Virus genome (UHGV): UHGV-0479444 | Strand: one strand, 5' to 3' | Origin: a virus | Length of the DNA stretch: 48,324 nucleotides | Part shown: piece by piece, positions 3,341-46,325 of the stretch | How positions within the stretch are numbered: position 1 is the first letter of the stretch | Layout: each line of letters begins with the position of its first letter | Made by a program: the position numbers and the translations under genes | The notes under the pieces: generated by a model | What the model was told of the DNA's origin: nothing | The model's input: the letters and a program-made list of their open reading frames with translations, nothing else | The model's database searches: none

Positions 3341-4147
3341 TTAAATAGATGTGGTCTCTTTACTGTAAATTACCGACATGAGCCTTGCATACCATGGCGC
3401 TTTAGGACTCCACTTGTAACACGGAATGTCCTTACCATTGTTGTCCTTGTAAATCTTCTGGATGATTTTTAATTCGTCTGGATGACCCAATGTTATTACT
3501 TTTTGACCGTCAAAATAATACACTGCACCTTTTCCCTCTACTGTAAATAAACATTTCATCTCTTCTTCTCCTTCCTGTTCGATTCCTGTATTCTGGTTAT
3601 TTTTTTGTTCGCTGCATGCAGACGCTCTACTGTCGATCGCCTTTGCAATCAGCTCAGCAATTCCTTTTGTGCCTAAATTCCGATACCGTGCTACATCATC
3701 TGTGCCGGTGCAAAATAATGTCTCTACGATCATGCCAGGCATATTAGATGCATTCAGATCATGGTATCCCGAACTGTACTTTACACCACGGTTAGTAAAT
3801 CCTTTTCCTGCAAAATTATTACAGATGTTGCTTGCGATTGTGTTCATTGTCTGGTTAGATGCATCGTATAACCACACCTCTGTACCGCCAGCTGACGCCG
3901 CTCCTGCCGCATTCATGTGCAAGGTGACATAGATATCACATCCCGCACTATTCGCCTTATTTGTTCCGTCAGATAACTCGCTGGACACATTGGATGCATT
4001 GGAATTACAATCAACCACAGTATGACCGACAGCCTGCAACATTGGTGCAAGCTCATTGTAGATCTTCCGCACTTCTGCCTGCTCATCGATCAGACCTATT
4101 GCACCTTTACAATTCGGGGAATGCCCTCCCCTTAAGCCAATTTTCAT
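3341..4147 (-). CDS. Endolysin: N-acetylmuramoyl-L-alanine amidase (Amidase_3/CwlA-like) with C-terminal ~70-aa putative wall-binding domain
   Basis: N-terminus MKIGLRGGHSPNCKGAIGLIDE resembles the zinc amidase_3 start motif. Adjacent to the holin. Confidence 0.85.
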   Translation of the reverse strand: MKIGLRGGHSPNCKGAIGLIDEQAEVRKIYNELAPMLQAVGHTVVDCNSNASNVSSELSDGTNKANSAGCDIYVTLHMNAAGAASAGGTEVWLYDASNQTMNTIASNICNNFAGKGFTNRGVKYSSGYHDLNASNMPGMIVETLFCTGTDDVARYRNLGTKGIAELIAKAIDSRASACSEQKNNQNTGIEQEGEEEMKCLFTVEGKGAVYYFDGQKVITLGHPDELKIIQKIYKDNNGKDIPCYKWSPKAPWYARLMSVIYSKETTSI

Positions 4148-4233
4148 TCTTTCTCTTCCTCCTGCTCTTCTGTTTCAAATGCTTTTTCCAGTTCCTCTGC
4201 GGATACTCTGCCAAATTCGTTCTGTTCGCTCAT
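4144..4233 (-). CDS. Tiny acidic ORF (29 aa, MSEQNEFGRVSAEELEKAFETEEQEEEKE) coupled to the endolysin
   Basis: AAGGAGGTGAGAAC RBS. Its TGA stop overlaps the endolysin ATG (ATGA). Confidence 0.35.
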   Translation of the reverse strand: MSEQNEFGRVSAEELEKAFETEEQEEEKE

Positions 4234-4276
4234 GTTCTCACCTCCTTGTGCGATGTCGCACAATAAAAGAGGACGA

Positions 4277-4729
4277 TTACTCGCCCTCCTGCTCCTGTGA
4301 TTTATTTGTTAAAACATCCAGTGCTTTTTTTAACGCTTCCGGATATTTCACGCCCATAATTCCAACATTTTCCAAAATCGAGATACCCTCATTTGCTATA
4401 AATGCCAGTACCACGGCTGTACGGATGTAGTCTACGCCGAGAGTAACATCCAGCCGATATGCAATAAGTACGATCAGTAGGGATACCCCTTTTCTGCACA
4501 AACCTTTCCACGCTGAGTAGCTGCTTAGCGCACCGTTCTCTGATTTGTTGCTCTTTTTCCAAAAGGCAGCGATCAGCAATCCAAGAACAAAGTCTACTCC
4601 CATAAAAATAAGTAATGTAGTCAAATCCTCGGACCATCCTCCAATCAGGTTTACGAATCCTCCAGCAATAGCTCCAAACACCATGCATAAAAACGCTTTT
4701 ACATTTGCCAACTGCTCCATTTTCTTCAT
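4277..4729 (-). CDS. Holin, toxin-secretion/phage-lysis holin family (TcdE/holin_4_1-like), 150 aa
   Basis: Three predicted TM helices. Conserved ISILENVG motif. Start MKKMEQ at 4729 with AGTGAGGA RBS. Confidence 0.8.
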   Translation of the reverse strand: MKKMEQLANVKAFLCMVFGAIAGGFVNLIGGWSEDLTTLLIFMGVDFVLGLLIAAFWKKSNKSENGALSSYSAWKGLCRKGVSLLIVLIAYRLDVTLGVDYIRTAVVLAFIANEGISILENVGIMGVKYPEALKKALDVLTNKSQEQEGE

Positions 4730-4811
4730 ATCCTCACTTTCCTTTCTGTTTTTAAAGTATAAAAATAAGACCATCACGGTCTTGCTCTAATCTCCATATT
4801 CGCTCCTTTAA

Positions 4812-7800
4812 TCAATCATCTGTAATCCACGTGAACGTTGCGTGACGTTCTGTCCATGCGGCATTCTCCACATAAATCTTGATCCCCCCATCTTTTCTTA
4901 TGCCGTATCTTCCCGTTCCAAATATGTTAGATCCTGAAACTTCACTATAGGGAGCAAAGAAATCCACAACCGGTCGATATCCTACTGGAATTTTCACTTC
5001 GTTGAATGGCCCGTATTCGCCACTTCCCGGAAATTGTGCAATCATTGTGATCTTGCATGTTACCATACATCCTCTTCTTTTTAGTTCCACACGGATGTTA
5101 TTAGCGGAGTTTGTACTTGTATATGGACCTTTCACGGTACCGGAATCGTAAGAGATAGATTTTGTAAGCTGCTTAATTGTCCTAATAAGCCATATGCTAT
5201 CTCCATTTATGTTTGTCACCGAAAAGTCTCGCATCTCCTCATCTCCGCGAATAGAGCATACCATAGATCCATTCGCGATATCATCCGCCATGCTACTGCC
5301 GCCGGAATAAAATTCTAATCCAGAGTAGTTTAATCGACTCCCCCAGTACCTAGACGGTGTAAACGATCTTACCATGTCAATATTCTCTTTTTTTACAAAA
5401 ACGGAAATTGTACCGTCACTGCTTTTAGACACGATCTCTCCGGTGTCTACATTTATGTAAAAGTGTCCACCCTTACTCTTAATAAGTCCGGCTGTTACAG
5501 TTCCAAGGTTGGCAACGATCGCACTGAGCGTTTGCACGTCCAGATTCTCGACTGCGATATAATGGATCACCCACCTACTTCCATCCCACCGCTTGATCGG
5601 CTGACCGGATGCTGTCTGCCATAACTGGCCAACTTTAGGATTTGACGGAGCCGTAGAAGATACAATTATGCCACTTGGTCCTGTTGCTCCTTGTGGTCCT
5701 GTCGCACCTTGTTCTCCTTTAATCTTCGCCCACTTATAAGATCCAACACTTGTAGGATCGGACTGATTGTAATCCACACAAGTACCGATATACGTTCCCA
5801 CATCTTCTCCGCTGTTTCCGGTAAACGTTTTTCCTCCATCATTAGAATATTTAATGTGAAGATAGCTTGTCTTGCCGTTTGCGCCATTTGTCCCCGGAAT
5901 CCCCTGCGTTCCCTGTGGTCCTTGCACTCCCTGGAAGCGTGACCAGGTATATTTCTTTGGATCCGTGCTATCTTCCTGTGTGAAGTCTACGTAAGTACCA
6001 ATATATGTGTTAGGTATCTCTGTCATCTGGTTAGAGGTGGTTGGATTCGATACTGCGGAATACTTGATGTGAAAATAGGTGCTCTTCCCTTTAATATTGG
6101 TTCCGCTTGGTACAGGTCTGCTATCTAAGACAGGTGCTGTCTGCTTATAATTTCCATTCTGCCATGTATATCCTGTTGGCTTAGGTGTCCAGTTGACCAC
6201 AAAATCAGTCTTTACAAAGTATTTACCGCCACCTCTTAAATATAATACAGGGATTGATCCATAAGTCAGTTGTTTATAGCTGGCAGGCGACACTGAACAA
6301 AATGAATACGTGTCTGCATAAATAATACATTCGCCAGAAGTAGTTCCCCACCCAGATCCAATGGAAGCCAGATCTAAATTCACCGAGAATCCGCTAACAT
6401 GTGTACTCCAGGATGGTTTTGTTCCACTATTTAAAGACACATTAACCAAAATACGATTATAAACACTCGTTGGAAGCTGACTCCCCACAACGGGATACCA
6501 TTTATTTACATCGTAAGTTTTGGTATCAGATAAGTCTATCGTTGCTGATGATCTCCAGTAGTTTACACCTGCAGCTCCAGTATCTCCTTTGGGACCCTGT
6601 ATCCCCTGTTCACCTTTAGGACCTTGTATTCCCTGCAAACCCGGGACTCCCTGAGGACCACGTTCCCCCTGTTCGCCTTTTATTTTTGTCCATGTATACT
6701 TCGTAGCATCTGTACTATCTGCCTGTGTATAATCCGTGTACTGCCCGATATAGAGCTTATTTGTACCATCCGTGGTGGAAAATCCCGTCTTGCCATCTGC
6801 ACTGTTTGCGTAGGCGATATGTAGATACGGGGTCTTTCCATCAGCTCCCGGCTTTCCGGGTGTTCCGATCGCCCCGTCTGTGCCTTTGATCTTACTCCAT
6901 GCGTATTTTGTCGGGTCTGCGCTGTCATTTTGCGTAAAATCAACATACATTCCGATATATTCCCGATTACTGTCGGATACAGAAAAATCTTTAGACCCAT
7001 CTGCGCTGTTTGCATAAGCAATGTGGGTGTACTGTGTTTTTCCGTCCTTCCCATCTTTTCCCGGGATTCCCTGATCCCCTTTTGGACCCTGTATACCATC
7101 CAATCCCGGAGCGCCTTGTGGACCCGGAGGTCCCTGTTCGCCTTGCTCTCCTTTCTCACCTTGCGGACCCTGTTCTCCGTCTTTTCCATCCTCTCCATCC
7201 ATTACATCCGTGATCGTAACCTCGTAATACCCTCTACGCACGCCGTTTTCAAACGCCGTAAAAGAGTACACTACTTTTACATCCACATCCTCTGCATTAA
7301 CCGTAACGCTCTTACCAACGTAAAACTCTGTCCCATCTTTACTCCACCGGATTTCCAGATTTCCTGTGACGTCCACGCCGTTATCGTAAGCGTAAGCGGT
7401 CAGAGTAGTGCTACCGATGCCATTTTTAAAAATAATGCCGTTGTTTGTTGAGATAGAGCAAGTATAAACCTTATTTTTATTAATAAGGTCTTGCATCCTC
7501 TGTAATAAGCTGTCCGAAATTTCGGATGTAAGCTCTTTGTAGTTTGTAAATACCGTCTTTGCTGTCTTTGGATTTGTAAGACTGCGCACCTGTTCGGACA
7601 CTCTCGCCTGTAGATAAAGCACTGGTGTCCACTCCTGATCCTGCATCCTCACGGTGTCCCCGATGTTGGTGTCAAAATATCCGTCCACCTCGTAAGTCAC
7701 CACCGGTTCAGATGCTGTTTTAAGATCAGACAGAGCCATGCTATAGAGCTTGTCCTTGCTGTCTGTATCGTACTCTTTACGCATCAGGATATAAGCATCA

Positions 7801-23814: not shown

Positions 23815-24153
23815 TTACGAATTCGCCATAATCCCCTGTTTTTTCATTTCAGCAAGAATTGCATTGATTTTATTTTTTAAATCAGCCCCTGTTTCTGTGG
23901 ACAAATCTGCAATCAAAGCCATCTGTTTTACGCCACCAAGCGTTGTCTTGTTTGCTGCTGGAAGAGTGTAACTTGTTCCAGCAGGTCCCTGCGCACCCGG
24001 ATCGCCTTTTTCGCCTTTTGCCCCTGCTGGTCCTGCTGGTCCCGCTGGTCCTGCTGGTCCAACCTGCTCATTCTTCACGCCCTGCTCTAATTTATTCATT
24101 TTTTCTGCTGTCATAACGTCTCCATCACTCCATGTTGTTGGTGTATATGCCAT
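23815..24153 (-). CDS. Small collagen-like repeat protein (112 aa), putative head decoration/fibre
   Basis: G-X-Y run GPAGPAGPAGPAGAKGEKGDPGAQGPAGT. Located right after the major capsid gene. Confidence 0.6.
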   Translation of the reverse strand: MAYTPTTWSDGDVMTAEKMNKLEQGVKNEQVGPAGPAGPAGPAGAKGEKGDPGAQGPAGTSYTLPAANKTTLGGVKQMALIADLSTETGADLKNKINAILAEMKKQGIMANS

Positions 24154-25747: not shown

Positions 25748-25999
25748 CTTTATTCCTTTCCTTGACCACTGTTTATTATCGCGGTGTCTCCGCTGGCCGT
25801 GGCAGTTATTCTCCCATGCCACAGGGGATGTTTTCCCGCAGTTTAAATGTCTTGAGGGTTGATCGGACAAATACTGTCCCCAAAATTGAGGAAAGCGTAT
25901 AAAAATAGCACCTACCACACTGGATAGATGCTAAATTTATTGTTTTTATTTTTGAAATTGGCATAAAAATACCACTCACTCAATTAAGAATGAATGGTA

Positions 26000-26191
26000 T
26001 CATCTCTTTTCCGCCGGTTCCATATGAATCTTAAAATTACAGGTTGTACAATTGAAATATGTACTTGTTTTTGGATTATAAGGTGTAATGATTTTACCTG
26101 TTTTACATTCCGGACAAATTACTTCTTTTCCATCCCGTAACGCCTTTATCATCATTCCAATTTCTTTTGGTGTCATTACTTTAGCCTCCAT
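26000..26191 (-). CDS. Small zinc-ribbon protein (63 aa), coupled to the MuF gene
   Basis: CPEC...CTTC (two CxxC pairs). Start overlaps the MuF 3' end by 16 nt. Confidence 0.5.
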   Translation of the reverse strand: MEAKVMTPKEIGMMIKALRDGKEVICPECKTGKIITPYNPKTSTYFNCTTCNFKIHMEPAEKR

Positions 26192-27813
26192 TCACGATCT
26201 GAATATCTTCCTTTTACTGATTTTATTATATTCCTAATGTCTTGTCCCGTCAATTTACCTTTCGTATGTAATTCAGCAAAATAGTCACAAACAGCTTCTG
26301 CGTGTTGATCTCCACCTATATCTAATCGGATATGCGTTGCTTCATGGATAATCGTTTCCGCCGTCTTCCGTATGCTTTGTGTTTCCACCCCATTGATATA
26401 GATATGATTTCCAATACATGATCCATACAGTCCTTCCAGTCCCGTTTCTGAAATTGTATTGCTGCTATAATATACGTTAACGGAAATATGATTCGTTTTA
26501 ATAAAATCAAGAACTGTCTTTCCAACATTTGACTTATTAAGATTTTTGTATAAGTTAGCTGCGAGTACTGTATCCATTTCTTTTGTAATCTCTACATCGA
26601 ATATTTTTTCTGCTGTCTTCTTTTTTATATTAGAAATTCTTGACTCAAATATTCTTCCCGGCAACACTCTTCCAAGTCCATCCATATAGACTCTCTGCAT
26701 CTGCTCTGGAAGCTCCATCTTTTTAGAAAACCCCTGATATTCCCGGAGTGTGTTCAGATACTTCGCTTGGGCTGCCTGTATGTCTAACTGACTGGCTTTT
26801 CCCTTTTTTAGAAGATCAATGTCACTTCTCTGCTTTCTCATTCTGGTTTCAAGCACTCTCTGCCGCTGCTGCGCTTCATAGGCATTGTATGATTTTCCAT
26901 GATAAGACCTTGTAATTTGTTCGTTTGCTTCCATTTCCCGTAATTGTTCTGGTGTATACGTTCTGACAGATACCCCTTCCACAAATGCAAAGTAGCTATG
27001 CTTACAGTTTGCCCCACACAGACCATCCACATCTCCTAAACGGCAGATCGAGATCAATTCCTGTTTGGTGTATACATTCCCTCCCCACCAGTGAGAAGGT
27101 CGATGCCCGGCATGCCATGTCACCTCATAAGTATCTGTCCCTAAATCCTTTGCCACCTGTTCATTGATCTGAGCAGCCAGTTGATGTACACCAGTCATGA
27201 CAGCGCGTCTGACTGCTACAGGAACACGATTCCCGTATCCTGATGCATAATTTACTGTCCGTATCCCACTGGCTGTCATTTCCTTTACTACACGCCTGAG
27301 AACGGTATTGTAATCGAACGCTCCGGTTACAATGTCCATACATGCACGATCAAGATACTTCTGATAGTACTCCGAAAATGGAGTGAATACTTTCTTTCCT
27401 CCGTAATCCAAAGCAAATCCCATTGATCGTGTGATATTCTGTATCTCATGTTTTGTCTGACTTAGAATTGCTTTCGCCCATGTCTGCATCTGCTCATTAT
27501 CTTCATAAGGTGTGAAATTGGCGTTCACCTGCTCGTAAATTTCTTTTACTCTGGTGTAATCCTTTTCAATCACTGTATCATAAATTTCCCACAGTTCTGG
27601 ATCAGTAAGCCCTGAAAGACGTTTGATTTCCGATTCAATGAACTCCGTGGAATTTCCAATGATCTGTATTCGGTTCAGCTGATAATCTGCTGTAGAAGTA
27701 ATCCCACCTGTCTTTTTAATTCTCCTGACCACATCCCTCATAATCCGGTTTTGCAGTTCAAGAAACATCTTCTCAAGCTGCAGTGGCAGGTGTTCCATTT
27801 CCTTTGGCTGCAT
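26176..27813 (-). CDS. Minor head protein, SPP1 gp7/Mu F family, with ~160-aa C-terminal HExxH extension (545 aa)
   Basis: Position immediately after portal. N-terminal 380 aa are head-morphogenesis-like. C-terminal TIIHEATHIRLDIGGDQHAEAVCDYFAE carries an HExxH...E zincin-like signature. Confidence 0.75.
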   Translation of the reverse strand: MQPKEMEHLPLQLEKMFLELQNRIMRDVVRRIKKTGGITSTADYQLNRIQIIGNSTEFIESEIKRLSGLTDPELWEIYDTVIEKDYTRVKEIYEQVNANFTPYEDNEQMQTWAKAILSQTKHEIQNITRSMGFALDYGGKKVFTPFSEYYQKYLDRACMDIVTGAFDYNTVLRRVVKEMTASGIRTVNYASGYGNRVPVAVRRAVMTGVHQLAAQINEQVAKDLGTDTYEVTWHAGHRPSHWWGGNVYTKQELISICRLGDVDGLCGANCKHSYFAFVEGVSVRTYTPEQLREMEANEQITRSYHGKSYNAYEAQQRQRVLETRMRKQRSDIDLLKKGKASQLDIQAAQAKYLNTLREYQGFSKKMELPEQMQRVYMDGLGRVLPGRIFESRISNIKKKTAEKIFDVEITKEMDTVLAANLYKNLNKSNVGKTVLDFIKTNHISVNVYYSSNTISETGLEGLYGSCIGNHIYINGVETQSIRKTAETIIHEATHIRLDIGGDQHAEAVCDYFAELHTKGKLTGQDIRNIIKSVKGRYSDREWRLK

Positions 27814-27824
27814 ATCTTCACGCC

Positions 27825-29204
27825 CTATTCCATTGTATCTTCCAGGTTAAATTGTGACGCCTTCTGCAACATAATAATTGCCTGTTCCTCTGTTTCTCCA
27901 AAACGCTTCATTCGATATTCCACGGGACCAACAACCCCAAGACTATAATCTGTCCGAAGCTGTTCCGTCTCATATTTCTTGTCTGTTACAAGGGAATCAT
28001 CCCAACTGCAGGATACTTCTACCTTTCCATCTGCAGAAATGCCGCCAAGCGACATCCATACTTCCACTGCTGCCACAAGATTCTCAAGTGCGTTCCCAAG
28101 GCTATTCTGAATAGATTTTACCGTTGCGTAAGAGCGTTGCTTACTGGCCTTAATTTCTTCTGCTGTCTTATCCACTACCTGTGGATCTGAAAGAGTTCCA
28201 TAAGCCAGACCACAGTTAAACTCTACTTTCTGTATGATCCTGTTGTACCCGTTGAAGAAGCTCTCATCCCGGATTTCCGGTGAATACGCATTAAAAAAGG
28301 GATTTCCATCCCTACTCATCACATTCGGCCCCATTGCCCGGTAAAGCCGTTCTTTCCCTTTTGGCAGGATAACTTCTCCCTGTCGATTCTTCCGAAAGAA
28401 TTCGTCTGCTGCCTGAATTGCCGTTTCCTTTGATTTGTATTCCCACAACACTGCTCCATACTGCTCATCAGCATCCCTGATCTGATTCACGGCTCTTGCA
28501 TAGATCGATACACCAAGAGGAGAATGGATGTCTGTATTGTTTGCCAATGGAATTTTGAAGTAAGAAAACAGCATCCTGTCCGCATTCTGAAACTCGACAT
28601 AAGGGGCAATATCTGACCATTCCGGTACTTCTTCCAGATTGATCTCCTGTCCGAGATTTACGATATCATCCGTTTTTACCATTGCTTTCTTACTGATAAA
28701 AGCTTTGTTCACAATGCTGTATCTATCGCCCTGTAATGCGTGATATTCAAGTCTTGTATAAAGATTCTTTCCAGCGCGCTTAAATTCTGGGAAGATAGCC
28801 GCTGTAATCTCTCCTGCGCTGTTAAACTCTACCGGATAAAAGTCACCGGCTCTCACTACATCTATCTCAATCCCTTTCTGGGATAAATACGGTTTAAAGA
28901 CCACACCGCCTGTACTGCAGGCAAACTCTGTGTAGTTTGAAATCTCATTTAGAAACGGCTGCATCCCCTCTTTAATCATTTCAGCTTTGCTTCCGCCCGT
29001 AATATTGATACTGGATTCCATTGTCACCAGTCTTGCCATTTCGGAGCAGATTGCTGCCGGGAGGTTCAATCCCTTTACATCATCATTCAACCAGGAGGAT
29101 TCGTTGATATACATCTTCGACCAACGATAGATTGCCTGTGCCATTCTCTGGGATACCGCAACATCCACTCCCATTGCCTGTTTTATAGTTTCATACTGTA
29201 TCAA
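27825..29204 (-). CDS. Portal protein (459 aa)
   Basis: Immediately downstream of and overlapping TerL. Size and acidic C-terminus typical. Confidence 0.75.
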   Translation of the reverse strand: MIQYETIKQAMGVDVAVSQRMAQAIYRWSKMYINESSWLNDDVKGLNLPAAICSEMARLVTMESSINITGGSKAEMIKEGMQPFLNEISNYTEFACSTGGVVFKPYLSQKGIEIDVVRAGDFYPVEFNSAGEITAAIFPEFKRAGKNLYTRLEYHALQGDRYSIVNKAFISKKAMVKTDDIVNLGQEINLEEVPEWSDIAPYVEFQNADRMLFSYFKIPLANNTDIHSPLGVSIYARAVNQIRDADEQYGAVLWEYKSKETAIQAADEFFRKNRQGEVILPKGKERLYRAMGPNVMSRDGNPFFNAYSPEIRDESFFNGYNRIIQKVEFNCGLAYGTLSDPQVVDKTAEEIKASKQRSYATVKSIQNSLGNALENLVAAVEVWMSLGGISADGKVEVSCSWDDSLVTDKKYETEQLRTDYSLGVVGPVEYRMKRFGETEEQAIIMLQKASQFNLEDTME

Positions 29205-30559
29205 CGTTCCTCACCTCTTTCTGATATTGGCAACATAAATTTAATCTGGTTCCACATCCCAACACACAGATACCTGCTTCCATCAAGCGCATGATCGTTC
29301 TCTTTTACTGGTATCTCAACGCCTTTTTTAATTCCATCTGTATTGTACTGATAAAGTCCAAACTCCTTGATCAGCATCTTCTGTTTCTCGCTGACGATCA
29401 TTCTTCCGAAAGACAACAACTTCTGCACACGGCTGATCCCCAACTTGACATCATTCTGCGCCGGTATAACCGGTATATGGGGGATGACTCTCCGTATTTC
29501 CTCAATCAGACCTGCTGCCGATGGATCCACGAATATGTAGCTGACTACACGGTCATACTCCTGTTCTATCTTGTCGCAGAATGTTTTCATATTCTGTGCA
29601 TACTCCGAAGGAGATTTCTGTGTTCCACTTTCTCGCCCAGAATAGTAATACTCATCGATTCCACGCAGGACCTGATTTTGATAGTCAATGCCGAACGCTT
29701 CATAGACTGTTGCATTCTGCTGACCGTAATCCACTCCAATTCCAATCTCCCCAATGCTTCGTTTCTCTTCCTCAATGTAATCTTCCGGCTGATAAATATG
29801 CTTCTCTGCTGAAAACATATAGTAGATCAGATCATCAACTCCCGTAGGCTCTCCTAACCATGTCCACCGGTACATCTTGATATCCGCTCGCATCATAGCT
29901 TCTGCAGAATCAATCAGATCCTGTCCTAACCAATCAACCGGAACATCTTTATAGCTTGTGTGAATATGGATGCAGTCCTCCCGCTCTTCCATCTTCTTAC
30001 ACCAGAGGTTGATCGGAGCATTCGGATTCTTCGGCGGATTGTAAAGATAGATCATCTGGAAACCAGCTTTATTTCCACGGACGAACGTTGCTTCTATATT
30101 CGCCAGTTCATCTTCCCCTTCCCCGTCATCAAAGAACTCTGTCAGCTCATCCAATACTACTAACTTGATCGGCTTGTCCTCATCGATGATACCCTTTGTA
30201 TCGTCAATCCCGTCAGAACCGGAGAAATACATCGTTGTATTGTGCTTTTTATATGTAATCTCCATCGGTGATTTTCCGATCTTGAAATATGACTTGGGGA
30301 TTTCTAGCCGGTTAATGCCCCGAAGCATTTCTTTGTACACTGTTTTCCGCAGCTTATTGTGATGCTTGCGAAGAACTACTGCTGAACCATTCGCATCATC
30401 CACCAACTGGAAGATTCCTCTGACTCCTGCATAACTGGATTTTGTACCGGCACGGCCAGATGTCAGGATAATATGTTTATGCTGTTTATCGTTAAATAAA
30501 GGCAGATATTTCGGAATGATCAGATCTGATATTCTAACCTGTTTCTTTGTCTGCATCAT
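29201..30559 (-). CDS. terL: Terminase large subunit (452 aa)
   Basis: Walker A ILTSGRAGTKSS near the N-terminus. C-terminal nuclease-like acidic residues. PBSX/SPP1-like arrangement. Confidence 0.9.
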   Translation of the reverse strand: MMQTKKQVRISDLIIPKYLPLFNDKQHKHIILTSGRAGTKSSYAGVRGIFQLVDDANGSAVVLRKHHNKLRKTVYKEMLRGINRLEIPKSYFKIGKSPMEITYKKHNTTMYFSGSDGIDDTKGIIDEDKPIKLVVLDELTEFFDDGEGEDELANIEATFVRGNKAGFQMIYLYNPPKNPNAPINLWCKKMEEREDCIHIHTSYKDVPVDWLGQDLIDSAEAMMRADIKMYRWTWLGEPTGVDDLIYYMFSAEKHIYQPEDYIEEEKRSIGEIGIGVDYGQQNATVYEAFGIDYQNQVLRGIDEYYYSGRESGTQKSPSEYAQNMKTFCDKIEQEYDRVVSYIFVDPSAAGLIEEIRRVIPHIPVIPAQNDVKLGISRVQKLLSFGRMIVSEKQKMLIKEFGLYQYNTDGIKKGVEIPVKENDHALDGSRYLCVGMWNQIKFMLPISERGEER

Positions 30560-45229: not shown

Positions 45230-45459
45230 TCCTTTCTTTTTGATTGAGTTCTGAAAATATCACAATTTTATATTGACTAAGTTCTGAAAATATTCTATAA
45301 TCTAGTTGTCAAGCAAAATTACAAAATAAATTCCAGCATTCTTATTATCGCAATTTTTTGCGATTTTTTCAGAACCCTATAATCACATTATACGCGATAA
45401 TTTCAGAATGTCAAGAAATATTTTGCGATTTTTTCAGAATTTTGAAAGGAGTCTACATA
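45230..45459. promoter_or_regulatory. Genetic switch region: divergent promoters and at least five TTCTGAAAA operator half-sites
   Basis: + strand TTGACT(45273-45278)-17-TATAAT(45296-45301). AGTTCTGAAAATAT occurs at 45247 and 45280. TTGCGATTTTTTCAGAA(C/T) occurs at 45357 and 45424. Partial TTTCAGAA at 45400. Confidence 0.6.
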
Positions 45460-45881
45460 TGACACTGAGAGAACGCGTAAAACATCTGTGCAAAGAACAT
45501 GGAATTTCAATGAATAAATTGGAAAACGAACTTAATTTTGGAAAAGGGTACATAAGCAAATTAGGTTCAAGTCAACCAAATGTTAACAAGCTCCAGCAAA
45601 TCGCTGATTACTTCAGCGTATCGTTGGATTATTTAATGTCTGGAGCATCTAATGGTGATAATCCGTCATCACTCACGGCGAAAGATGAGCGCGACATTGC
45701 AAAAGATATGGAAAACATCAGAAATAAGTTGAAAAACAATGAAGAAGGTCCTGCTTCTTATGATGGTCAAGCTATTCCAGAAGAAGATATTGACTTGCTT
45801 CTTGGGCAAATCGAGCTGATGATGAGAAGGTTGAAACCGATTAACAAAGAAAAGTACAACCCTAACAAAAATAAAAAGTAG
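45460..45881 (+). CDS. cI-like XRE-family repressor (140 aa)
   Basis: GAAAGGAG RBS. N-terminal HTH (ISMNKLENELNFGKGYISKL). Followed by ImmA (ImmR/ImmA-type pair). Confidence 0.75.
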
Positions 45882-46325
45882 GTGTATAAATTGAGAACAA
45901 ACGATATTAAGCGTTTAGTTGAATACTACATAAAGAAATTTAATACAAGAAATCCTTTTAAACTTGCAAACTGTTTAAATGTCGAAGTTCAATTAGGACC
46001 TTTGGGAAGTCGAGCTGGATGCTATATGTTTCTGAAGAATCACAAATGTGTTTTCTTAAATGAAGATTTAGAGGAACATGAGCTGAATCTTGTAATGGCT
46101 CACGAGTTAGCACACTCCATTCTTCACAGAAAAGAAAATTGCTACTTTATCAGAAACAAGACTCTTCTGTTATCTTCTACCAATGAAATAGAAGCTAACA
46201 CATTTGCCGCAGAACTTCTCATACCAGATTCTTTAATCTATGAGAATCCAGGCATGACAAAAAGCCAGATTGCGAGGCTGGCTGGATATGATGAAAAGAT
46301 TATGGAATTTAAAAGCGTATTGTGA
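45882..46325 (+). CDS. immA: ImmA/IrrE-family metallopeptidase (147 aa)
   Basis: HEXXH motif HELAHSILH with downstream EIEANTFAAELL. Adjacent to the XRE repressor. Confidence 0.8.
   Translation: MYKLRTNDIKRLVEYYIKKFNTRNPFKLANCLNVEVQLGPLGSRAGCYMFLKNHKCVFLNEDLEEHELNLVMAHELAHSILHRKENCYFIRNKTLLLSSTNEIEANTFAAELLIPDSLIYENPGMTKSQIARLAGYDEKIMEFKSVL

Follow-up and report, generated by a model that had tools for sequence, protein, structure and literature searches.

MuF toxins are widespread in human gut prophages, and the biology of SPP1 gp7 and Mu F suggests that MuF proteins are packaged in the virion and ejected with the DNA. A comparable genetic arrangement is found in nuclease colicin operons, where the order is toxin gene, immunity gene (directly 3′ of it) and terminator; transcripts of the immunity gene arise together with those of the toxin, and in addition from a constitutive promoter of its own that lies within the toxin structural gene. 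Temperate phages encoding MuF polymorphic toxins were described by Zhang et al. 2012 (PMC3482391) and Jamet et al. 2017 (PMC5576092), and a metallopeptidase domain was reported in 20% of MuF toxins (PMC5576092). Apk2 and Bxa are characterised MuF toxins (PMC11699363, PMC12226406), and the small ORFs 3′ of both genes were identified by experiment as encoding immunity proteins (PMC11699363). As of that 2024 paper, the only MuF toxins with experiments were alarmone synthetases (Apk2) and the ADP-ribosyltransferase Bxa, which the paper itself describes, with no metallopeptidase among them (PMC11699363), and the Tox-MPTase1-5 entries of Zhang et al. come without an immunity family (PMC3482391).

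Here, we have analyzed a locus within a 48,324-nucleotide stretch of viral DNA (UHGV virus genome UHGV-0479444, referred to below as the window), in which the portal gene, the MuF gene and the cassette features described below lie on the minus strand. The gene order is large terminase (29201-30559; gene order, Pfam/PHROG matches), portal (27825..29204; phrog_533, E 6.6e-112, with a weak PF05133 match), MuF-family minor head protein (26176..27813, 545 aa plus stop; PF06152, E 1.7e-94; phrog_581 'minor head protein', E 9.6e-100), zinc-ribbon partner, scaffold and capsid. The MuF ORF starts 11 nt past the portal ORF, and the placement of the 545-aa protein next to the portal, at the position where MuF proteins belong, was correct in the preliminary description of this DNA. 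The phage carries lysogeny genes (a large serine recombinase, an HTH repressor with ImmA/IrrE, and an AntA antirepressor) and is temperate; it is probably a siphovirus of gut Clostridia. An N-terminal MuF-superfamily domain, a gene directly past the portal and a temperate phage are all features that the locus shares with the known MuF polymorphic toxins.

The conserved N-terminal part of the protein (aa 1-387; 26653..27813) contains PF06152 (Phage_min_cap2), which covers aa 1-362 with 317 bits against a cut-off of 26.3 and corresponds to 'MuF2' as defined by Jamet et al. (PMC5576092). A short conserved stretch ending in ...MDGLGRVLPG follows this domain, and aa 1-387 are presumed to be a module for capsid and portal targeting. 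In some related loci the MuF gene is split, and a search of these loci against Rfam found neither an intron nor another RNA family.

Beyond the MuF2 domain approximately 180 residues are left, of which about 158 (aa 388-545; 26179..26652) form the variable part, close to the extra ~160 C-terminal residues originally proposed. This polymorphic region comprises a linker (~aa 388-412) and a zincin-like HExxH domain (~aa 413-545). Alignment to MuF homologues agrees with the suggestion that the C-terminus is polymorphic and the N-terminus conserved, since two sibling phages (L051 and L058) show 97-100% amino acid identity to the window protein up to residue ~387 and only noise-level similarity beyond it, and such siblings carry unrelated small ORFs downstream as well. 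DNA homology to these phages (94-99%) ends at window position 26653/26652 and picks up again at 26010 (L051) and 26169 (L058); the swapped DNA (window 26011-26652, ~640 bp) has a GC content of 33.8%, compared to 43.9% in the flanks. Across 37 related loci, at least six different MuF tails were found. That unrelated C-termini occur on such nearly identical N-termini argues against a structural role of the C-terminus within MuF. It would be extremely unlikely for this region to be a structural head component or a required prohead-maturation protease, with the small ORF an unrelated gene of the head module. The gene does sit in a head-morphogenesis operon, the phrog_581 profile aligns as far as MuF residue 494, and no separate prohead protease was seen between the portal and capsid genes in the ORF listing or by Pfam. 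However, phages whose portal, scaffold and capsid DNA is 94-99% identical have unrelated C-termini, some of just 109 residues; a VgrG-like protein encoded on a bacterial chromosome also carries the HExxH domain; and the 24 loci without the domain also lack the ribbon gene. A conserved structural C-terminus in which the H and E positions vary, raised earlier as an alternative, was looked for, and the reverse pattern of swapped C-termini and invariant H and E residues was observed.

The HEATH motif (H490, E491 and H494, aa 490-494; 26332..26346) is predicted to be zinc-binding and catalytic and is invariant in 140 of 140 domain sequences and all 68 full-length proteins. It had been reported together with a downstream Glu in the string TIIHEATHIRLDIGGDQHAEAVCDYFAE (aa 487-514); the motif holds, but the conserved Glu is E506 (26296..26298), not E514. 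E506, which is 99-100% conserved, is the predicted third zinc ligand, as in gluzincins. Relatives that keep HExxH and E506 are found at as low as ~24% identity to the window domain (140 domains, 68 full-length), and the conservation of H490, E491, H494 and E506 down to this level indicates that the HExxH is not a chance match. C509, H516 and Y537 are 90-100% conserved in the same two samples, and position 513 is Glu in 84% of homologues and Ala in the window. The model contains a helix bearing HExxH (aa 482-498) and a second helix (aa 504-519) with E506 at its start, and aa ~413-545 are modelled as a zincin fold, namely a mixed beta-sheet packed on the active-site helix. The domain is predicted to bind zinc and may have peptidase activity.

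With its minimal zincin core, made of an HExxH helix and a Glu in the next helix, the domain is similar to Tox-MPTase1-5, Tox-HopH1 and PVC-metallopeptidase (Zhang et al. 2012), and it also resembles the zincin MPTases of polyvalent proteins (Iyer et al. 2017, PMC5512222) in its minimal core, its C-terminal location on a delivery scaffold and its use of several scaffolds. It has no significant Pfam match to any Tox-MPTase family and, unlike Tox-MPTase1-5 as listed by Zhang et al., is accompanied by a conserved partner. No usable match was obtained when the C-terminal region was compared with Pfam, NCBIfam and PDB sequences, and the window domain had no match at E <= 10 in Pfam, including curated peptidase families, DUF6782 and Tox-MPTase1-5. 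Matches to BFVD by Foldseek were weak (all E >= 0.025), and tblastn with three family members against 50,697 GenBank phage records returned zero matches. Only 8 close relatives were retrieved by a word-index protein search, whereas an exhaustive profile search reached the family. PF20573 (DUF6782, a putative metallopeptidase) produced weak matches in 13 of the 68 full-length relatives and in most isolated domains tested; these cover profile positions ~27-124, including the HExxH helix, and are all sub-threshold (best 25.3 bits against a gathering threshold of 27). No mention of DUF6782 was found in the literature searched.

Several zincins act alongside DNA, such as ArdC, Wss1/SprT and CapP-type proteins, but their likeness to the window domain is limited to the general fold, and no DNA-binding domain was identified in the window protein. 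Wss1/SprT (WLM) proteases were considered and rejected, as the HExxHx5H pattern that distinguishes them is absent from HEATHIRLDIG; one relative has the only SprT-like Pfam match, a marginal one (E 0.11). The YbeY endoribonuclease was likewise rejected, because its H-x3-H-x5-H triad is lacking: HEATHIRLDIG has Gly at +6 from the second His, plus a catalytic Glu. More generally, a metal-dependent nuclease (a YbeY-like RNase) or another non-peptidase hydrolase on a zincin scaffold is regarded as very unlikely.

Different scaffolds carry the HExxH domain at the C-terminus, including MuF2 (29 proteins), MuF1 (24), VG15 (9) and a VgrG-like spike (1), and this sharing of one domain by several delivery scaffolds is a further resemblance to MuF polymorphic toxins. 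The VgrG-like carrier contains Phage_GPD and Phage_base_V, has a DUF4280 gene upstream and is located in a bacterial chromosome; it is the sole non-phage example.

Immediately downstream of the MuF gene lies the partner gene (26000..26176, 58 aa plus stop), whose longest ORF extends to 26191. The preliminary description had recorded a 63-aa ORF with two CxxC pairs and a 16-nt overlap with MuF. Such an ORF is present (26000-26191, CPEC...CTTC), but the protein made is most likely 58 aa, with translation starting at the second ATG (26176), which overlaps the MuF stop codon as TAATG. A Shine-Dalgarno sequence, GGAGG (26185..26189), can be read 8 nt upstream of this ATG within the last MuF codons, and the start at 26176 is preferred because the first ATG (26191) falls within the ribbon's own Shine-Dalgarno. 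The same N-terminus as in the 58-aa protein, MTPKEIG, opens the longest ribbon ORF in L015 and L016 and also heads the called gene in L003. Four cysteines (C21-x2-C24 ... C43-x2-C46) are invariant in 25 and 55 homologues, and the AF2 model (pLDDT 81.6) shows an N-terminal helix (residues 3-14) along with three strands. Judged from sequence and model together, the partner is a zinc-ribbon protein with two CxxC-type knuckles on beta-hairpins. None of the curated families searched (Pfam and other profiles) matched it above its threshold, and the ribbon proteins are a four-Cys family without source annotation. The C-terminal domain, which belongs to no curated family, and this four-Cys zinc-ribbon partner both set the locus apart from the known MuF toxins.

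Related loci were gathered with a 15-sequence sub-alignment of the 68 full-length proteins. The full set of 101 loci, which is not phylogenetically independent and takes in loci fetched via the ribbon itself, includes 66 with both domain and ribbon, 24 with neither, 9 with the ribbon only and 2 with the domain only. The ribbon gene thus adjoins the domain in 66 of 68 domain-bearing loci (the two exceptions being a contig end and a divergent ribbon) and is absent from the 24 loci having other C-termini, a pattern that supports the earlier proposal that the small ORF is the partner of the C-terminal domain. A variable C-terminal enzymatic domain with a co-varying downstream small ORF is also typical of MuF polymorphic toxins. 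The ribbon accompanies the domain to MuF1-type and VG15-type scaffolds and possibly to the VgrG-like scaffold, where the ORF 3′ of the fusion scores 18 bits against the ribbon profile.

Intact ribbon genes were also found without the domain. In L058, a window-type ribbon lies behind a different cassette; this orphan is located in 99%-identical DNA, so that its presence could simply reflect recent recombination and not selection. An abundant orphan copy is present in L088-L091, only a promoter-bearing toxin-gene fragment and the ribbon have been kept in the chromosomal loci L096-L098, and intact ribbons without the HExxH domain occur in the chromosomal loci L092-L095. In addition, an abundant chromosomal ribbon homologue (P0204) is situated between ftsY and a HIRAN-domain gene, and no HExxH domain was found nearby. 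In one locus (L049), domain and ribbon are contained in a single ORF; this was rejected as an informative Rosetta-stone fusion, since the copy is truncated and degenerating and the locus is considered to be decayed.

A near-consensus promoter of the sigma-70/sigma-A type is predicted inside the toxin ORF, ~50 nt upstream of the ribbon start (26225..26253), on the basis of a scan and conservation. It consists of TTGACG (26253-26248, codons L521-T522), a 17-nt spacer and TATAAT (26230-26225), the latter covering the third base of codon 528 as well as I529 and I530. Among 38 distinct loci, 31 match at 11-12 of the 12 hexamer positions, and when lineages are delimited at <60% identity, 6 of the 11 have the promoter. 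The entire window holds just 6 sites of this quality, counting both strands; in 12 loci with other cassettes the promoter was sought and is absent. Codon usage at these positions is strongly skewed: for L521, 36 of 42 genes use TTG (background 19.6%), for I529, 40 of 43 use ATA (background 34.8%), and codon 528 ends in T in 37 of 44 despite a variable amino acid. The embedded promoter is thus under selection at the nucleotide level, seen at synonymous sites, and it is presumed to be active. The translational coupling to MuF that had been suggested for the ribbon is consistent with the TAATG overlap, but coupling would not be its sole route of expression, given the conserved promoter of its own.

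The ribbon gene is followed by an intrinsic-terminator-like hairpin (25963..26000), with a 13-14 bp stem and a T-run; the stem opens with the final nucleotide of the ribbon stop. RNAalifold predicts 14 pairs, 6 of them with compensatory changes, and an invariant GGTATTTTT comes after them. The hairpin follows every cassette type and is the conserved right flank of the cassette. A downstream partner gene, a promoter inside the toxin ORF and a terminator after the partner gene are the arrangement of nuclease colicin operons, although delivery is proposed to be by a phage capsid instead of secretion and receptor-mediated import, and the toxin chemistry and immunity fold differ. The conserved promoter that the partner has within the toxin ORF is a further difference from known MuF toxins.

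The best explanation, to which we give a probability of roughly 0.65, is that the locus is a MuF-type polymorphic toxin cassette, in which a metallopeptidase effector is encoded together with an immunity protein that has a transcript of its own. Through its MuF2 part (aa 1-387), the protein would be incorporated into the procapsid at the site of the portal, and it would exit the virion together with the DNA, by analogy with other MuF proteins. A flexible linker of ~25 residues would bear a minimal gluzincin-like metallopeptidase domain of ~130 residues (HExxH and E506), which would serve as a cytoplasmic effector once a new cell has been infected and would be toxic there, and the 58-aa ribbon protein, a candidate immunity protein, would be the cognate partner that neutralises it. 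The ribbon might be produced by two routes: translation coupled to the MuF stop during late expression (via TAATG and the Shine-Dalgarno inside MuF), and transcription from its own constitutive-looking promoter in the 3′ end of the toxin ORF, bounded by the terminator hairpin. The second route would supply it in lysogens, and soon after the DNA has entered a cell, with no need for the toxin. Toxin domain, promoter and ribbon gene move jointly as a ~640-bp low-GC cassette, with the conserved MuF core and the conserved terminator as the borders of the recombining segment.

The ribbon may instead be a cofactor, folding chaperone or packaging adaptor needed for the activity or loading of the HExxH domain. 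Tight adjacency and translational coupling would be expected of obligate partners in general, metal binding is predicted for both proteins, and the two are fused in the decayed L049. Yet that fusion is a truncated, degenerating copy, the intact ribbons without the domain (L058, L088-L091, and the chromosomal L096-L098 and L092-L095) would have no obvious use as cofactors, and a dedicated promoter would provide the ribbon while the toxin is silent. Orphan copies and a separate promoter are typical of immunity genes and favor immunity over a chaperone role, so that an accessory function seems unlikely. It is somewhat less probable still that the HExxH domain serves in self-processing or release, as a peptidase that cuts MuF or packaged proteins within the head or once ejected, without a target in the host. 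The flexible linker preceding the domain would suit such a role, and autoprocessing or release has been proposed for zincins of phage polyvalent proteins (PMC5512222) and PVC toxins (PMC3482391). However, the domain is the last in the protein and leaves no downstream cargo to release, non-peptidase C-termini suffice in sibling phages whose head genes are almost the same, and a dedicated, separately transcribed partner with orphan copies would be unexpected for housekeeping processing.

Several points count against the polymorphic toxin explanation: a phage toxin harming the cell that the phage has just entered is paradoxical, the window domain matches no curated peptidase family, Ala stands at position 513 where most homologues have Glu, and the ribbon homologue P0204 occurs with no HExxH domain nearby. 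A tentative reading, for which the chances are low, is that the pair serves as an infection timer and kin shield. The protease would act only in the first minutes after DNA entry, for instance by cutting a host defence or regulatory protein, and would then be stopped by the ribbon, which the incoming genome would produce from the constitutive promoter within its toxin gene. Lysogens, as well as cells or phages with orphan ribbons, would already be safe from protease injected by sibling virions, and the chromosomal ribbon homologues P0204 and P0261 might represent host-captured antidotes to phage-injected proteases.

If the toxin and immunity assignment is true, a zinc-ribbon inhibitor of a zincin would fill a gap, as metallopeptidase polymorphic toxins lack an assigned immunity family. 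The HExxH domain and the ribbon look like an undescribed family of a known toxin/antidote kind, which the metallopeptidase count of Jamet et al. may include. The cassette is compact and well bounded (a ~130-residue zincin domain, a 58-residue partner, and a predicted promoter and terminator) and is therefore directly testable, and the near-identical phages with swapped tails provide natural 'swap' controls. The promoter, written in conserved Leu-Thr...Ile-Ile codons, is a clean case of dual-use coding sequence and offers a testable account of how an antidote could be produced while the toxin operon is silent. The tail of L058 contains a second, unrelated HExxH with weak likeness to Tox-MPTase4 (15.9 bits), and this tail has a zinc-ribbon partner as well.

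On the minus strand of the window, the large terminase (29201-30559) and the portal (27825-29204) are followed by the 545-aa MuF ORF (26176-27813) and a small Cys-rich ORF (26000-26191), with the scaffold and then the major capsid gene next. Residues 1-362 of the MuF protein match Pfam PF06152 Phage_min_cap2 (E 1.7e-94), the protein also matches phrog_581 'minor head protein', and the HEATH motif occupies residues 490-494, which confirms the preliminary description of a MuF protein with HEATH and a Cys-rich ORF overlapping its 3′ end by 16 nt.

When viral contigs were queried with MuF residues 1-381 alone, phages were found whose MuF proteins are 97-100% identical to that of the window until residue ~387 (...MDGLGRVLPG) and unrelated beyond it, so that the variable C-terminus anticipated on a conserved N-terminus was indeed observed. 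In six loci the tail is 109 residues long and a 64-aa acidic ORF comes next, the HExxH tail of the sibling phage L058 is of another type (LFHEKQH, with a weak resemblance to Tox-MPTase4) and has its own zinc-ribbon ORF behind it, and more distant relatives have additional tail types, DUF6883 among them. DNA homology between the window and a second sibling, L051, is 96% up to a break at 26653 and 95% from 26010 on; the exchanged segment is therefore 26011-26652, comprising codons 388-545 and nearly the entire small ORF, with a GC content of 33.8% vs 43.9% in the flanks. Since the portal, scaffold and capsid genes of siblings with unrelated tails are near-identical to those of the window, a requirement for the HExxH domain in head assembly or maturation was rejected; the MuF C-terminus is a polymorphic region and not a structural one. 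This HExxH domain follows MuF2 in 29 proteins, MuF1 in 24 and VG15 in 9, and it also ends one 1079-aa VgrG-like protein on a bacterial chromosome, with a DUF4280 gene adjoining. That locus (L050, 3112-8484) has two VgrG-like genes and the DUF4280 (PAAR-like) gene, the domain being on the second VgrG-like protein.

The MuF C-terminal region had no matches in Pfam, NCBIfam or PDB sequences, and an exhaustive profile search with this domain retrieved 274 cluster representatives (159 at E < 1e-10). In all but one of 157 proteins examined, the domain ends no more than ~20 residues from the C-terminus. H490, E491 and H494 are invariant in 140 domain sequences, E506 is 99% conserved in this set and invariant in an alignment of 68 full-length proteins, and C509, H516 and Y537 are 90-100% conserved across homologues. 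An AlphaFold2 model (pLDDT 77) has a disordered linker (aa 382-412) followed by a compact alpha/beta domain, with HExxH on one helix and E506 beginning the next. The HExxH...E layout is that of gluzincin peptidases, and the predicted model may be set beside lugdulysin, deuterolysin and minigluzincins, as well as CapP, Spartan and ArdC. Membership of YbeY or Wss1/SprT was rejected, as the second His is followed at +6 by Gly and their signature motifs are thus absent. The best score of any relative against Pfam DUF6782, described as a putative metallopeptidase family, is 25.3 bits, below the cut-off of 27, and the HExxH family therefore counts as uncurated; tblastn did not detect it in 50,697 GenBank phage records, and no mention of DUF6782 was found in the literature searched.

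Although the 16-nt ORF overlap stands, the 63-aa start previously assigned to the small protein probably does not, because its first ATG lies inside the Shine-Dalgarno sequence. The second ATG, at 26176, has GGAGG 8 nt upstream and a TAATG overlap with the MuF stop; the longest ribbon ORF in L015 and L016, two related loci, starts with MTPKEIG, as does the gene called in L003. On these grounds, the product is most likely 58 aa. In loci retrieved via the HExxH domain, with domain identity to the query down to ~29%, a 53-76-aa ORF overlaps or abuts the stop codon, almost always with the pattern L-[RK]-x-G-E-x-V-x-C-x2-C-x-K-G ... F-x-C-x2(4)-C. The four Cys are invariant in homologue alignments, and an AF2 model (pLDDT 81.6) places a ribbon of three strands after an N-terminal helix. 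Source annotation of the family is uninformative, with only generic or evidently automatic labels on a few members.

Profiles of the domain and the ribbon were run on all 101 fetched loci, a set that has near-duplicates in it as well as loci that the ribbon search had brought in: both were present in 66 and neither in 24, whereas nine had the ribbon alone and two the domain alone. The ribbon is specifically linked to this domain, and the pattern holds across 11 domain lineages (<60% identity). Of the two domain-only loci, L044 is a contig end and the other is the VgrG locus, whose downstream 75-aa ORF matches the ribbon profile at 18 bits across the helix and first knuckle. Orphan ribbons also occur: in L058 a window-type ribbon gene remains intact after its different cassette, the very abundant homologue P0186 (L088-L091) is an orphan of this kind too, and all that precedes the chromosomal P0261 is a remnant of 76 residues from the C-terminal part of the candidate toxin domain. 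The chromosomal P0204 (L092-L095, 3001-3186) has ftsY on one side and a HIRAN-domain gene on the other, and no HExxH domain in its vicinity; this conserved 61-aa homologue (73 bits, on >500 contigs) could be a host-captured antidote or reflect an ancestral cellular role of the family. In L058 (4663-5275), the LFHEKQH tail is unrelated to that of the window between flanks 97-99% identical, and the 58-aa zinc-ribbon ORF belonging to it matches the window-type profile at 17 bits; MuF metallopeptidase tails may thus commonly have zinc-ribbon partners.

A putative promoter, TTGACG-17 nt-TATAAT (26253-26225), lies within the candidate toxin ORF, ~50 nt before the ribbon start codon. Over the final 150 nt of this gene, the best site matches at 11-12/12 in 31 of 38 distinct loci, always with a 17-nt spacer, a score reached in at most 1% of shuffled-sequence trials. 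The hexamers overlie the conserved L521-T522 and I529-I530, and synonymous positions are conserved too: L521 is encoded by TTG in 36 of 42 genes (background 19.6%), the I529 codon is ATA in 40 of 43 (background 34.8%), and codon 528 ends in T in 37 of 44, the amino acid there varying among nine residues. No match above shuffle level was detected in 12 loci with other cassettes, and the L050 VgrG-like copy has no embedded promoter. The toxin-gene fragment in the chromosomal remnant L096 retains a perfect 12/12 promoter match, which would explain the survival of this piece of the gene. Only six sites of at least 11/12 occur in the whole window, the two strands taken together, two of them at the repressor/early-gene switch. 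These facing sites, at 45273 (+, 11/12) and 45414 (-, 12/12), border an HTH repressor and ImmA/IrrE pair (45408-46325, +) and leftward early genes, a junction that is likely the lysis-lysogeny switch.

Directly 3′ of the ribbon stop, a hairpin of 13-14 bp precedes GGTATTTTT (26000-25963, minus strand), an element resembling an intrinsic terminator. Every cassette type is followed by it, with compensatory changes at six pairs, and it is a conserved right-hand flank open to cassette exchange. Translation of this region accounts for recurrent spurious 'SGIFIPIFKK' ORFs. In the window and at the equivalent position in L001-L083, the hairpin and T-run separate the MuF cassette from the scaffold gene, so late transcription would have to read through or restart beyond them.

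MuF polymorphic toxins are an established class, for which PF06152 was defined as MuF2, metallopeptidase domains were reported in 20% and small downstream ORFs in 89% (Jamet et al., PMC5576092). MuF- or capsid-delivered effectors and zincin toxin domains were also described by Zhang et al. (PMC3482391) and Iyer et al. (PMC5512222), with no immunity family given for Tox-MPTase1-5. As of 2024, only Apk2 and Bxa had been characterized experimentally among MuF toxins, and their downstream ORFs are immunity proteins (PMC11699363, PMC12226406). The zincin family, the zinc-ribbon partner family and the codon-embedded promoter appear to be undescribed.

Entry into the capsid is an established property of SPP1 gp7 and Mu F; by analogy, the MuF2 module would bring the protein into the capsid, from which the linker-tethered zincin would be delivered together with the DNA and be neutralized by the ribbon protein. 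Coupling to MuF would yield the latter in stoichiometric amounts in the late phase of expression, and the embedded promoter would supply it separately in lysogens and from genomes that have just entered a cell. An immunity role rather than that of a cofactor or chaperone is favoured because its expression would be separate from that of the toxin and orphan copies persist. Colicin genes and their immunity genes have a similar arrangement. Comparative evidence thus supports the proposed MuF effector domain with a small partner.

The window is a temperate phage with a serine recombinase, a repressor with ImmA, and an antirepressor. Its left end carries the large serine recombinase (148-1680, +) and an Amidase_3 endolysin and holin (3341-4147, -; 4277-4777, -), and GC skew reverses at ~4 kb and ~46 kb. 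As near-identical IMG/VR contigs are 44-49 kb long, it probably spans almost the entire prophage. A 112-aa ORF (23815-24153, -) has a collagen-like GPAGPAGPAGPAG... repeat, and its DNA is 82-93% identical to Ruminococcus gnavus phage 'head fiber protein' genes, a likeness that points to a Lachnospiraceae host. In the relatives L001 (4307-6130), L002 and L003 (~4150-6000), the MuF gene is split into ~254-aa and ~280-aa ORFs, ~262 bp around a conserved SHxWxG...C..NC.H motif giving way to a ~1.8-kb insert with 3-5 small ORFs (NikA-like, ORF6N and unknowns); Rfam detected no intron in these loci, and the HExxH domain and ribbon are still intact downstream.
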